Assembly (NCBI GenBank): GCA_038064735.1
Contig: JBBTSI010000003.1
Location: forward strand, 21,154 to 85,153
Direction: 5' to 3'
DNA length: 64,000 nt
Source: Patescibacteria group bacterium
Lineage (GTDB): Bacteria > Patescibacteriota > Minisyncoccia > Phycocordibacterales > WO2-35-19
Made by a program: the position numbers and the translations under genes. The notes under the pieces are model-generated. The model searched no databases. It had not been told where the DNA came from and saw only the letters and a list, made by a program, of their open reading frames with translations. Shown in pieces: positions 56,666 to 60,367 of this stretch (positions are counted from its first letter, which is position 1; every line of letters starts with the position of its first letter).

Positions 56666-58489
56666 ATGGAAAAACACCCCCTTCACCTCAAAATCCCAGA
56701 ACTGCAAAAGTCAGAAGAAGTAGAATTAGCTGTAGAAAAACAGGAACGTCTAACTGAGGAAAAAATACCCAACAATCCCAACGAAAGAATAGAAGCATAC
56801 ATGGATCGTTTGGAAAACATCTTCCTCAACCCCAACGAACGGGTAAGAGAAAGGAACCTGGAGATGGTCAAAAACAAGATATACGATAACCTCCTCATCA
56901 AGAAAGAAAACTTCCCTGAGTCATACTTCGAACTCCAAAAAAGAGTAGCTAGAGAACAAGGTCACGGTGATATAGAAATCACTCCGGAAATGCGTGACCA
57001 AATGATGAATGTAGCTATCGAAGACCAAAAACATTCTCTAGACCAATGGACAGACTACCTCACATCAGAAGATGCTGTCTATCCGGCTTGGTTTAAATAC
57101 TACGCTTGGAGCCAAGTCATTAAGTTATCTCAATTTGATAAAGAAAGAGGTGAATTCAAAAAACGCACTGACTCTACCGTCGCTCCATACCCCGATATAT
57201 ACCGCGAACCCCTAGCTGAACTCTGCGACCTTTACGAAAAAGTTAAGGAAGATAACAAGGCTCTCAAAGATGATGAAGTCAAAAGACTCTTTTCTGAAAG
57301 ATTTCCTTCTGCTTACGCCGAACTCATTCAAAAATCCCTCGCTTCTCAAATTGAAAATCAAGAAGAAATCAAAGGAGAATGGATAAAGTATGAACAAGGT
57401 GATATGAGACAAGCCGAGAAACTCTACGAATCTCTGGAAGGCAAAGGCACTGGTTGGTGTACTGCAGGCAAGTCAACCGCTAAAACTCAAGTTGAACAAG
57501 GAGATTTTTATGTATATTACACTAACGATTCAGAAGATAAACCCACTCAACCCAGATTAGCTATCCGTATGAACGGTCAAAACAAAATTGGTGAAATTCG
57601 AGGTATTTTACCTCATCAAAACGTTGAATCTATGATGCAAGATGTATTAGACAGAAAACTCAACACCTTTGGTGACGCTGGTGATATCTACAGAGAAAAA
57701 AGCTATGATATGCAACGTCTCACTAAGATTGAGGAAAAGACCAAATCAAACCAAGAACTTTCAAAAGAAGACCTCATCTTTCTCTACGAAATCAACAGAA
57801 AGATTGAAGGGTTTGGGTATGACAAAGATCCGAGAATTGAGGAGATTAGAGGAGAGAGGAATATAAAAGAAGACGCGCCAATCATACTTGAATGCAAACC
57901 TGAAGAAATCGCTACCAATGAAAGTGAAATAACAGAAAACACCAAAGCCTACATTGGCAAACTTTTTCCCAACATATTTAAAACCAACATTAACCCAGAT
58001 AATATTTATACTTCTTTTCCTGAAGGCAAAATTCAAAAATATGAGACTCAGATTGGAGGAAAAACTAAAGATGAATTAATGCTAGAAATGCAAGAAAAAA
58101 ATATCAATATTTCAGATTATGCTAAGGATATGTTAAACAGCCAAGATTTTACTACTCAAACAAATCAAGAAAACCTCAATCTCGTCAGACTAACTGTCAA
58201 AGACTTGGGATTCCCAAATGGCACTACTACAGATGAAATTTACAAGAAAGCCGAAGAATTCGGTTTAGAACTCTGTCCCGCTGAAGTCGGCCCATCCCTC
58301 AGACTCTCATATTTAGGGAAAGATTATATGGTTATCGCTATGAAGCAAATCACAGACCGCGACGGCCGCCTGAGAGTGTTTGACCTCTACTGGTATGGCG
58401 GCAAGCTCGTACTGAGCACGTTTTACGCTAAGCCTTCGAATAGGTGGGATGACTACCACAAGTTCATTTTTCGTTCCCGCAAGTCTTAG
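56666..58489 (+). CDS. DGR target (variable) protein, 607 aa, C-terminal C-type-lectin/FGE-like variable region
   Basis: C-terminal 44 codons form the variable repeat (VR), homologous to the downstream template repeat with adenine-specific differences; the rest has no recognisable domain. Confidence 0.75.
   Translation: MEKHPLHLKIPELQKSEEVELAVEKQERLTEEKIPNNPNERIEAYMDRLENIFLNPNERVRERNLEMVKNKIYDNLLIKKENFPESYFELQKRVAREQGHGDIEITPEMRDQMMNVAIEDQKHSLDQWTDYLTSEDAVYPAWFKYYAWSQVIKLSQFDKERGEFKKRTDSTVAPYPDIYREPLAELCDLYEKVKEDNKALKDDEVKRLFSERFPSAYAELIQKSLASQIENQEEIKGEWIKYEQGDMRQAEKLYESLEGKGTGWCTAGKSTAKTQVEQGDFYVYYTNDSEDKPTQPRLAIRMNGQNKIGEIRGILPHQNVESMMQDVLDRKLNTFGDAGDIYREKSYDMQRLTKIEEKTKSNQELSKEDLIFLYEINRKIEGFGYDKDPRIEEIRGERNIKEDAPIILECKPEEIATNESEITENTKAYIGKLFPNIFKTNINPDNIYTSFPEGKIQKYETQIGGKTKDELMLEMQEKNINISDYAKDMLNSQDFTTQTNQENLNLVRLTVKDLGFPNGTTTDEIYKKAEEFGLELCPAEVGPSLRLSYLGKDYMVIAMKQITDRDGRLRVFDLYWYGGKLVLSTFYAKPSNRWDDYHKFIFRSRKS
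58353..58485 (+). repeat. DGR variable repeat (VR)
   Basis: 133-nt alignment to the TR; 18 mismatches, 17 at positions where the TR has A. Confidence 0.8.
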
Positions 58490-58827
58490 AGATTTGGATA
58501 CTTAGTTTCTTAATTCCAATTTTCCTTATTTAGATTTTTTGAAATTTTGATACTTTGGTTTTTATTTTTTTAAAATTCTGTATACTAAATTCAGATTGGT
58601 TATTTTGGACGGTCACGGCTTTCCAAAACCTTTCCGATACAAATAAATTGAGATTATAAACGGCCACGGCTTTTTATAGAGTAATTTATTTTGTATTCTA
58701 AAAAGAAATATACTTGGTATATGGTGCTGTGTGATTTGAGATCATGCATAAAATTAAACTCAAGTTTTTGTTTTTCATTAAATAATCACAAGAGAAGAAC
58801 GGTGTAATAGATGGCGCTGTATACAAA

Positions 58828-58960
58828 CAGACCGCGACGGCAACCTGAAAGTGTTTAACCTCAACTGGAATGGCGACAAGCTCAAACTGAACACGAACAA
58901 CGCTAAGCCTTCGAATAGGTGGAATGACAACAACAAGTTCATTTTTCGTTCCCGAAAGTC
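58828..58960 (+). repeat. DGR template repeat (TR)
   Basis: Rich in AAC/AAT codons in the VR reading frame (N L K V F N L N W N G D K L K L N T N N ...); non-coding copy 340 nt downstream of the VR. Confidence 0.8.
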
Positions 58961-58981
58961 ACTTCTTTTCCTTGCTGGATT

Positions 58982-59383
58982 TTATCTCGCAAGGTTTTTC
59001 TTTTCCGGATTTTCTAAATTTTTCCTCCAACCACCAAACATTTTACCGATTTCTTTCAATTTTTCTCCAATTTCTGCGTATTGTTTATGAGAAATTAGTT
59101 TACCTTCCCAAGTTATATGAATCAAAAATTTGATGGCGTCCAAATCTAAAATACACTGGTTTATCCTTTCTATTTTCTTATCTTTTTCGATAAAATAGGC
59201 TATATATGAAAGTTCCAGCAAATCCAAAAATTTATTCTCAATGCGAGCACCAATGCTGTGGCGTTGGCCTTTAGGCACATGATCAAGAATACTTACCCAA
59301 AGCAAATATGCCTCTTTGATGCGTTGAAGTATCGAGGCGTTAACGAGAGAGAGAGAGAGAGAGAGAGTAGAAAATTGCGCCAT
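58982..59383 (-). CDS. avd: Avd-like accessory protein (four-helix-bundle, 23S rRNA IVS-protein family)
   Basis: 133 aa; pattern ...HVPKGQRHSIGARIENKFLDLLELSYIAYF...YAEIGEKLKEIGKMFGGWRK typical of the TIGR02436/Avd family; N-terminus LSLSLSLS encoded by a (GA)n repeat. Confidence 0.6.
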   Translation of the reverse strand: MAQFSTLSLSLSLVNASILQRIKEAYLLWVSILDHVPKGQRHSIGARIENKFLDLLELSYIAYFIEKDKKIERINQCILDLDAIKFLIHITWEGKLISHKQYAEIGEKLKEIGKMFGGWRKNLENPEKKNLAR

Positions 59384-60367
59384 AAATATAACGATACCAT
59401 ATCAGTAGAAAATTTGCTCCACTCTTGGCAGGAATTTTTGTGTGGCAAGAAAAAACGCAAAGATGTAGCCGAATTTTTATTAAATTTTTCTGATAATATT
59501 TTTGATTTGCGTCAAGAACTCAAAAACAAAACTTACAAACACGGTGGATATCATGCTTTCAAAATAAATGACCCAAAACCAAGGAGTATTCATAAAGCTA
59601 GTGTCAGAGACAGACTTTTACACCATGTAATTTATAATGCTCTGTATCCGTATTTTGACCGGAAATTTATTTTTGATTCGTATTCTTGTAGGTTTGGGAA
59701 GGGGACACATAAGGCTATAAATCGTTTCAGAGAATTTGGCCGCAAAGTCTCAACAAATCATACTAAAACCTGTTGGGTATTGAAGTGTGATATCAGGAAG
59801 TTTTTTGCTAGTATTAATCATAATCTTTTGAAAGATATTCTTGATAAAAATATCAAAGACCCAGACATTTTTTGGCTACTTAATCAGGTTATAGATAGCT
59901 TTAATACAGAAAACAAAGTTGATGTCGGTTTGCCTCTCGGTAACCTTACAAGTCAGATTTTTGTAAACATTTATATGGACAAATTTGATCAGTTTATGAA
60001 AAGAGAAATCAAAGCCAAATATTATATAAGATACGCAGATGATTTTGTGATTTTAAGCGAAAACAAAAATTATCTTTTAAAACTTATACCTAAAATCGCT
60101 AGTTTTTTAGAAGAAAAATTAAAATTAGAATTGCACCCAAACAAACTTTTTGTTAAAACCTTATCTTCAGGGATTGATTTTCTGGGCTGGGTGCATTTTC
60201 CTAAGTATAGAGTTTTGAGAACTAGCACCAAAAATAGAATGTTTAGAAGACTAGCAGGGGAATTTAAAAAAGAAACAGGGGCTTCGTATTCAGGACTATT
60301 GAGTCATGGGAACGGGTTTAAGTTGGGGGAGAGAATTAAGTTGTTGCAAAAGCAAAATTTGGTATAA
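59258..60367 (+). CDS. DGR reverse transcriptase
   Basis: RT motifs: SYSCRFGKGTHKA, LKCDIRKFFASINH, GLPLGNLTSQIFVNIYM (DGR-specific SQ motif 4), YIRYADDFVIL (motif 5). True start uncertain; the listed ORF start overlaps avd in antisense. Confidence 0.8.
   Translation: MALAFRHMIKNTYPKQICLFDALKYRGVNERERERESRKLRHKYNDTISVENLLHSWQEFLCGKKKRKDVAEFLLNFSDNIFDLRQELKNKTYKHGGYHAFKINDPKPRSIHKASVRDRLLHHVIYNALYPYFDRKFIFDSYSCRFGKGTHKAINRFREFGRKVSTNHTKTCWVLKCDIRKFFASINHNLLKDILDKNIKDPDIFWLLNQVIDSFNTENKVDVGLPLGNLTSQIFVNIYMDKFDQFMKREIKAKYYIRYADDFVILSENKNYLLKLIPKIASFLEEKLKLELHPNKLFVKTLSSGIDFLGWVHFPKYRVLRTSTKNRMFRRLAGEFKKETGASYSGLLSHGNGFKLGERIKLLQKQNLV
59345..59365. repeat. (GA)10 dinucleotide microsatellite
   Basis: gagagagagagagagagagag inside the avd 5' coding region and the RT upstream frame. 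Confidence 0.9.

Follow-up and report, generated by a model that had tools for sequence, protein, structure and literature searches.

The window analysed here is a 64,000-nt stretch of DNA from a Patescibacteria group bacterium (GenBank assembly GCA_038064735.1, contig JBBTSI010000003.1, positions 21,154 to 85,153 of the forward strand), and it harbours a diversity-generating retroelement (DGR). The cassette is arranged in the order target gene with its variable region (VR), template repeat (TR), inverted avd gene and reverse transcriptase (RT) gene. The locus is a bona fide DGR: TR and VR differ at 18 positions, 17 of which are TR adenines, the VR is at the 3' end of the target gene, and an RT and an Avd protein are encoded next to them. 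The subject of this study is a perfect GA dinucleotide repeat within the overlapping 5' ends of avd and the RT gene. The coordinates of all features are collected in Table 1.

Results

The GA/CT tract and the two genes that share it

The repeat is 23 nt long (11.5 units), and was the only dinucleotide repeat of at least five units in the whole 64-kb window, which also contained no G/C run of at least 8 nt and no A/T run of at least 9 nt. A GA run of 15 nt was produced by none of 100 dinucleotide-preserving shuffles. The initial annotation had reported this repeat as a 21-nt (GA)10 tract; the GA repeat is present as described, but its length is 23 nt, (GA)11G. On the minus strand the tract forms codons 7-13 of avd and is read as LSLSLSL. 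Its placement in the N-terminal codons of an Avd-like open reading frame (ORF) was confirmed, as the 133-aa ORF matched the bAvd family over residues 19-122 with 56.4 bits (cut-off 40). The predicted N-terminal sequence of Avd is MAQFSTLSLSLSL. On the plus strand the tract is in frame with the RT ORF, and is read as ERERERE. As in contingency loci, the repeat unit is not divisible by three, the length is slippable, and the position is in the 5' coding region, here of both avd and RT. A TAG or TAA directly after the tract, as in the window, was common among relatives.

The RT was identified by a match to RVT_1 (E=1.6e-24) and by LGNLTSQ and YADD in its translation, the motifs LGxxxSQ and YADD being hallmarks of DGR reverse transcriptases. 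The longest RT ORF runs from a GTG at 59258 to 60367 on the plus strand, and overlaps the longest avd ORF over 59258-59383. An antisense overlap of about 125 nt had been described on this basis. The overlap is real, but comparative evidence (see below) supports a length of 105 nt, as the conserved RT start is the ATG at 59279 and not the GTG at 59258. Within this overlap the avd ATG is the antisense of a CAT codon for His in the RT (59381-59383), and the RT ATG (59279-59281) is the antisense of the avd His35 codon. Read from this ATG, the predicted RT begins with MIKNTYPK and later contains ERERERE, so that an N-terminal extension of about 32 aa is encoded antisense to avd.

Scanning the surroundings of the tract for promoters and terminators gave sites no commoner than in shuffled sequences, and none flanking the tract. 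The Rfam scan returned a single sub-threshold match that was judged to be due to chance, and no family was assigned.

Tract-length alleles in the Hainich groundwater population

Contigs from the same population were recovered from Hainich groundwater wells by exact-protein look-ups, and three tract lengths were present among them. The 23-nt allele of the window was also found in ERZ1292635 (L001), a 21-nt allele in ERZ1292638 (L008), and a 19-nt allele in a 154-kb contig of ERZ1292629 with 13x coverage (L002/L003/L006) and in the Logan assemblies ERR3858118 and ERR3858116 (L004, L005). The 21-nt allele and the L001 contig have a coverage of approximately 2x; the 19- and 23-nt alleles are otherwise on well-covered contigs. 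In L004, L005 and L008 the tract was the sole difference from the window, with no single nucleotide polymorphism (SNP) over up to 2.8 kb. For L006, compared over 10.6 kb, the only differences were the tract and 30 SNPs confined to one 360-bp patch. As the alleles differ in otherwise identical DNA, the tract must be far more mutable than its surroundings. The initial annotation had proposed looking for length heterogeneity in related genomes, and the assemblies of this one population show that the length is not invariant.

In a second lineage, tracts of 17, 19 and 23 nt were observed at 90-96% flank identity. No further near-identical pair with different tracts was present among the 160 related loci described below; other locus pairs with 100% identity had equal tract lengths, and may be duplicate views of the same assemblies.

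Effect of the unit number on the avd and RT reading frames

Reading frames were computed in silico for tracts of 5 to 15 units, which fell into three classes. With 5, 8, 11 or 14 units, the avd ATG at 59383 (ATG-A) is in frame, giving the 133-aa protein at 11 units, and the RT upstream ORF is in frame as well. With 7, 10 or 13 units, avd is instead in frame with a second upstream start (ATG-B), and the RT upstream ORF stops at the TAG directly after the tract. The product of ATG-B in the 10-unit allele is a 138-aa Avd, which was recovered as protein P0001. With 6, 9 or 12 units, avd has no in-frame upstream ATG, GTG or TTG, and the RT upstream ORF is cut to 48 aa; the first avd start is then the TTG at Leu27, which gives a 107-aa product without the beginning of helix 1. 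Exactly this pair was listed among the ORFs of the 19-nt allele, a 107-aa avd beginning at the internal TTG and a 48-aa RT upstream ORF, and the 9-unit allele is presumed from its sequence to be an OFF state. The earlier proposal, that adding or removing a single unit would shift the avd frame and alter the RT leader, agrees with both the computed frames and this ORF list. Clusters at 90% protein identity contained both ON forms beside many shortened calls of 107 or 115 aa.

Because the two frames are codon-aligned, an in-frame ATG-A implies that the RT ATG is in frame too, and no exception was observed among the loci compared. A three-state rather than a two-state switch is suggested in the lineage of the window, because ATG-B is in frame at 10 units and because the TTG at 59375, which the gene caller used as the RT start in the 19-nt allele, could start RT independently of the tract.

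Conservation of the repeat in related Patescibacteria

A search for Avd homologues yielded 691 proteins, and among the top 120 (58-86% identity) nearly all had an (LS)n stretch, with n varying, that directly precedes a conserved segment, ASILxRIKEGYL. From species-representative genomes and metagenomes, 160 related Patescibacteria loci were fetched, 152 of which had enough upstream DNA to be scored. A repeat was present within the 105 nt upstream of the invariant Trp29 codon in 133 of the 152 loci, over a range of 35-94% Avd identity. These comprised 66 poly-C runs of at least 8 nt and 67 dinucleotide tracts of at least 5 units, and in most loci the tract ended 44-48 nt before the Trp29 codon. 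Relatives with about 53% Avd identity and above mostly had (CT)n tracts of 10-43 nt; more distant relatives mostly had poly-C tracts of 7-13 nt. Approximately 98% of the tracts consist of pyrimidines only on the avd strand. Over 821 kb of flanking DNA of the same loci, there was no G/C run of at least 8 nt, and there were six dinucleotide repeats of at least 5 units. On this comparison the tract is a clade-wide feature, and not a peculiarity of the window genome. As the type of repeat changes while its position and instability are kept, mutability rather than a particular sequence would be the selected property.

At three loci the avd position was occupied by a (CA)n repeat (L037, where it is about 51 nt long and reads (TH)n in the avd frame, L065 and L154). 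Locus L029 has a hybrid upstream of the Trp29 codon, C10 followed directly by (TC)8, which may be an intermediate between the poly-C and (CT)n forms. Nine A/T runs of at least 9 nt occurred elsewhere in the 821-kb flanks (L009-L168).

Translation of the tract in the avd frame

The 15 codons between the tract and Trp29 evolve like the body of the gene, with the lowest variability at codon position 2, followed by position 1 and then position 3. For positions 1, 2 and 3 the values were 0.70, 0.40 and 1.03 bits in the (CT)n clade (gene body 0.77, 0.41 and 1.24), and 0.60, 0.41 and 0.95 bits in the poly-C clade (gene body 0.46, 0.35 and 1.13). Variation in Ala16-Ser17-Ile18 was almost wholly at third positions, codons 14-15, just before Ala16, were never ATG, GTG or TTG in the sequences inspected, and Leu19 was TTG in some relatives and CTT, CTC or CTG in others. 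Because the coding signal reaches the tract, codons 14-15 are never starts and Leu19 is not always one, avd translation must enter from upstream, through the tract. An Avd start after the tract was rejected because of the non-start codons at Leu19 in relatives, together with the coding-type evolution of Ala16-Ser17-Ile18. On this comparative codon evidence, the repeat is predicted to be translated and not to be part of an untranslated region.

Translation of the tract in the RT frame

For the RT side, 59 non-redundant (CT)n relatives were compared, and RT starts were surveyed in 57 loci of this clade. No canonical RT start was present before Glu12 of the conserved HIYNDIISVENLL segment in 29 of the 57 loci, and in about a dozen further loci the sole candidate was a GTG or TTG at Val11. 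Among the relatives, the TTG at 59375 corresponded to ATG, TTG, CTG, CTT, ATT, TTT or TTC. The antisense frame that is codon-aligned with avd was open for at least 66 nt past the tract in all 59 loci, compared with 2 and 18 of the 59 for the other two frames. This openness results from codon choice in avd. TTA, CTA and TCA, which are the antisense of TAA, TAG and TGA, accounted for none of the 260 Leu and Ser codons at avd positions 14-34 in the (CT)n clade, and for 256 of 1056 elsewhere in the gene (Fisher p=3.9e-28); codons ending in A were otherwise used freely. The avoidance ends right past codon 35, with the first antisense stops at codons 37, 39 and 40, and in 58 of the 59 loci His35 itself is encoded by CAT, which reads ATG in antisense. 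No such avoidance was observed in the poly-C clade (81/315 against 375/1416, p=0.83), in which 53 of 66 RTs have an ATG of their own on the RT side of the tract.

Given the stop avoidance, its end past codon 35 and the CAT at that codon, the RT ORF of the (CT)n clade would start at the ATG antisense to His35 and read through (GA)n. An RT start downstream of the tract had been raised by the initial annotation as an argument against a switch. The antisense-stop avoidance, the conserved CAT and the lack of a canonical downstream start in most RTs instead point to the in-frame upstream extension that it had described as a genuine reading frame.

These data also bear on a neutral explanation, in which the microsatellite is without function or in decay and is tolerated within an N-terminal linker that is dispensable; avd and RT would then start at the TTGs at 59305 and 59375, and the length would be inconsequential. 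Such downstream TTGs do exist in this lineage and are used by gene callers. Against this, Leu19 and the homologue of the TTG at 59375 vary synonymously or to non-start codons, and a start at Leu27 would remove the conserved ASILxRIKEGY segment, which is under codon-level constraint. A neutral microsatellite would also leave the antisense-stop avoidance unexplained, as well as the presence of a repeat at one position in 133 of 152 loci when repeats of this class are absent from the 821-kb flanks, apart from the six dinucleotide repeats. We regard this explanation as very improbable.

A second alternative, which is improbable though less so, is that the tract is a cis-acting element (H-DNA, a promoter spacer or a purine-rich ribosome-binding region for RT), the length of which tunes transcription or initiation. 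The almost exclusive use of pyrimidines on the avd strand would fit such a role, as would an RT ATG located 1-5 nt past the tract in part of the (CT)n clade; moreover, the genes are divergent, so their promoters must sit near or within each other's 5' ends. However, the tract appears to lie within sequence translated on both strands, (CA)n substitutes for it in three loci, and there was no Rfam family match. No sigma-70-like hexamers flank the tract, although this is a weak test, as the promoter consensus of the candidate phyla radiation (CPR) may differ. The spacing in the poly-C clade also argues against a cis-acting element: the distance from tract to RT start varies, the first RT start being mostly 9-10 nt past the tract with a range of 1 to 53 nt and one locus at 107 nt, whereas the distance from tract to avd body is fixed. 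A Shine-Dalgarno or leader role for RT was rejected on the same spacing and, for the (CT)n loci, because most have no start at all after the tract. A retroviral-type polypurine primer was rejected by reasoning, as the tract is about 385 nt 3' of the TR and outside the cDNA template.

The DGR cassette and its neighbourhood

Table 1. Features of the DGR cassette and of the avd/RT overlap (window coordinates).
Feature	Position	Strand	Remarks
Target gene, 607 aa	56666..58489	+	No Pfam match
VR	58352..58485	+	3' end of target gene, ends 4 nt before the stop codon
TR	58827..58960	+	avd stop codon 22 nt downstream, on the opposite strand
avd, 133 aa (11-unit allele)	58982..59383	-	Pfam bAvd PF22296, E=4.8e-15
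RT/avd 5' overlap	59279..59383	both	105 nt, head-to-head, codon-aligned antisense
DGR reverse transcriptase, 362 aa	59279..60367	+	Starts at the conserved ATG antisense to avd His35
Internal avd TTG (Leu27)	59303..59305	-	First in-frame start in the 9-unit allele, 107 aa
Hypermutable tract	59345..59367	both	(GA)11G on the plus strand, (CT)n on the avd strand
TAG directly 3' of the tract	59368..59370	+	Ends the RT upstream ORF in the 10-unit allele
RT TTG	59375..59377	+	7 nt past the tract; candidate tract-independent start
avd start ATG-A	59383-59381	-	In frame in the 11-unit allele
Second avd start ATG-B	59398..59400	-	MVSLYLWRNF..., in frame only at 7, 10 or 13 units

The neighbouring genes include mreB, a holB-like gene, frr, rseP and proS. 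Judged from these and from the closest relatives, the locus is part of a Patescibacteria chromosome, near Zambryskibacteria. The avd gene occupies nearly the whole interval between TR and RT (58960-59383) on the opposite strand; a TR transcript running on toward RT would consequently be fully antisense to the avd mRNA. Here the 3' end of avd overlaps the region that matches the priming 'spacer' of the Bordetella DGR RNA.

Several other features were observed in the cassette. An imperfect direct repeat with a GC-rich core (58602-58622, ATTTTGGACGGTCACGGCTTT, and 58653-58673, ATTATAAACGGCCACGGCTTT) is present in the AT-rich spacer between VR and TR. At the 5' end of the TR (58828-58847) the terminator scan identified a minus-strand hairpin rich in GC, CAGGTTGCCGTCGCGGTCTG, with a T-rich run after it, and a counterpart of this hairpin was found inside the VR. 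The window and every Hainich contig that spans the VR (L004, L005 and L006) have the same VR sequence, whichever tract allele they carry; these consensus assemblies thus give no hint that the VR is still being diversified. The 360-bp SNP patch of L006 (window 57358-57721) is in the middle of the target gene, far from the VR; 28 of its 30 SNPs are transitions, and they result in 7 amino-acid changes. Both Logan contigs break at 57766, adjoining the patch, which resembles a product of recombination or a segment specific to a strain.

Discussion

The tract is probably a contingency-type simple sequence repeat in the overlapping 5' coding regions of avd and RT that causes slipped-strand phase variation of the DGR. 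A heritable on/off switch is the most likely function because the length varies between otherwise identical genomes and because the tract is conserved across the lineage. The initial annotation had put forward slipped-strand ON/OFF control as a plausible reading, and the length alleles, the conservation in the clade and the signs of translation on both strands lend it support at the level of sequence.

In the proposed mechanism, avd would start at the ATG at 59383 and read the tract as (LS)n, and RT would start at the ATG at 59279 and read it as (ER)n. Slipped-strand mispairing at replication would add or remove GA units, and one length class (5, 8, 11 or 14 units here) would set both genes in frame together. 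With 11 units, Avd and full-length RT would both be ON. With 10 units, Avd could be made from ATG-B and the RT upstream ORF would end at the TAG; with 9 units, avd would be without a start codon and RT could be made only from the weak TTG at 59375. Mutagenic retrohoming in the Bordetella DGR needs both Avd and RT. Because both proteins are needed, the tract would gate diversification, and the population would comprise heritable, reversible subpopulations with mutagenic retrohoming switched on or off. What is inferred from the sequences compared is that protein levels depend on the frame state, that switching is both rapid and reversible, and that it gates DGR activity.

The avd body was intact in ON and OFF loci alike, and approximately 60% of the genomes were OFF. 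For 74 of 75 OFF loci, an ATG in another frame was present just upstream of the tract, so that a change of one unit would restore the frame.

A number of observations weigh against phase variation. The avd ATG was in frame in 43 of 128 non-redundant loci (34%), compared with 51.7 expected if length were random with respect to frame (p=0.13), and the consensus frame state therefore gives no sign of selection for ON. The three alleles come from consensus assemblies and could be fixed in co-existing strains, and the contigs behind the 21-nt allele and behind one 23-nt sequence are the thinly covered ones mentioned above. The fallback starts ATG-B and TTG 59375 could blunt the switch in this lineage; most relatives lack a codon equivalent to the latter. 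As the VR is identical in all Hainich contigs, the tract state is not linkable to diversification. Finally, no recognisable promoter or Shine-Dalgarno sequence for avd or RT was found near the tract.

The in-frame count fits classical contingency loci, and would be expected equally if the genomic frame were irrelevant, as in transcriptional slippage, so it does not discriminate between the two. Slippage of RNA polymerase or of the ribosome is the main rival explanation. In that case a fixed small fraction of transcripts would be in frame at any genomic length, the tract would be a constitutive attenuator keeping Avd and RT low, and the DNA length would be neutral. The statistically random frame state would then be expected, as would an avd that is intact and conserved in spite of the large share of OFF genomes, and slippage needs translation through the tract, which the codon evidence supports. 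To our knowledge, however, the documented transcriptional slippage sites are A/T homopolymers, and the tracts here are (CT)n, poly-C or (CA)n. The genomic length differs among otherwise identical sequences, and both the conserved TAG or TAA past the tract and the out-of-frame ATGs fit frame switching at the level of the DNA. Slippage is thus considered unlikely, and phase variation is preferred.

Phase variation by CT dinucleotide repeats is known from outer-membrane protein genes of Helicobacter pylori (oipA/hopH, hopZ and sabA). As in those genes, the (CT)n tract of avd follows the ATG by a few codons, within an N-terminal segment that is dispensable; one unit shifts the frame, and ON and OFF alleles coexist among close genomes. 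Unlike in H. pylori, the gene is the accessory gene of a retroelement and not one for a surface protein, a second gene (RT) reads the tract in antisense, the hosts are Patescibacteria, and the system is known from sequence alone. Poly-G/C contingency loci occur in Campylobacter, Neisseria (pilC) and Haemophilus. The distant relatives examined here resemble them in carrying C7-C13 in the avd 5' region, with the frame intact in about one third. In the poly-C form only avd is affected, whereas the dinucleotide form of the window is shared by two antisense ORFs.

In Haemophilus influenzae, a (TA)n repeat between the divergent genes hifA and hifB acts through the spacing of the promoter -10 and -35 elements. 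The present tract is similar in being a single dinucleotide repeat that would govern two divergent genes. It differs in being inside both coding sequences, where it would act through the reading frame, and in having no flanking promoter hexamers, with the reservation about the CPR consensus made above. Tandem repeats also toggle mutability in general mutator genes such as mutL and mutS, and there too an unstable repeat toggles a function that generates mutations; those repeats change genome-wide rates, whereas the tract described here would gate a site-specific, adenine-directed diversifier of one target protein.

The cassette resembles the DGR of the Bordetella phage BPP-1 (mtd-VR, avd, TR, brt) in its target gene with a 3' VR, its adenine-specific TR, its Avd four-helix-bundle protein and its RT motifs. 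It differs in that avd is inverted between TR and RT and overlaps RT head-to-head by 105 nt, and in the RT extension of about 32 aa and the microsatellite in the overlap. The DGR survey of Wu et al. (PMC5758913) describes architectural variety, but not a microsatellite in an avd/RT overlap, and Roux et al. 2021 (PMC8144416) make no mention of Avd; the inverted avd, the overlap, the RT extension and the microsatellite are not described in either survey. A full-text literature search, which did not cover the CPR-focused Paul et al. 2017, returned no paper in which repeats, phase variation or frameshifting in the machinery genes are connected with a DGR or with Avd. Phase variation mediated by repeats is itself well known, but its use to gate a DGR and the codon-aligned antisense placement appear to be unreported. 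Roux et al. 2021 (PMC8144416) reported below-average activity for a Patescibacteria-restricted DGR clade 2, in keeping with a switch that is frequently OFF.

The tract also has consequences for annotation. Public avd calls in the clusters of P0012, P0104 and P0115 are mostly 107 or 115 aa long and begin at internal TTGs, over dozens of contigs, and the public RT starts are inconsistent (317, 323 and 330 aa). This systematic misannotation of avd and RT is attributed to the tract, and annotation pipelines and DGR finders under-call or mis-call such loci. If phase variation is confirmed, the state of a DGR would be readable directly from metagenome sequence, as tract length would predict ON or OFF.

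The arrangement is unusual in that two codon-aligned antisense ORFs share one microsatellite, which would couple the expression of proteins that act as a complex. No dedicated DGR regulator has been described in the searchable DGR literature. If DGR activity has to be restrained so that useful variants escape overwriting, a repeat switch would supply a simple mechanism. Among known reservoirs of DGRs, the CPR bacteria are the richest. There is about an even chance that DGRs of these Patescibacteria possess a built-in, clade-wide hypermutation switch that is heritable and reversible, and that in the (CT)n clade toggles both proteins with each slippage event. Such a switch would allow populations to bet-hedge between diversifying the target and locking in a successful variant.

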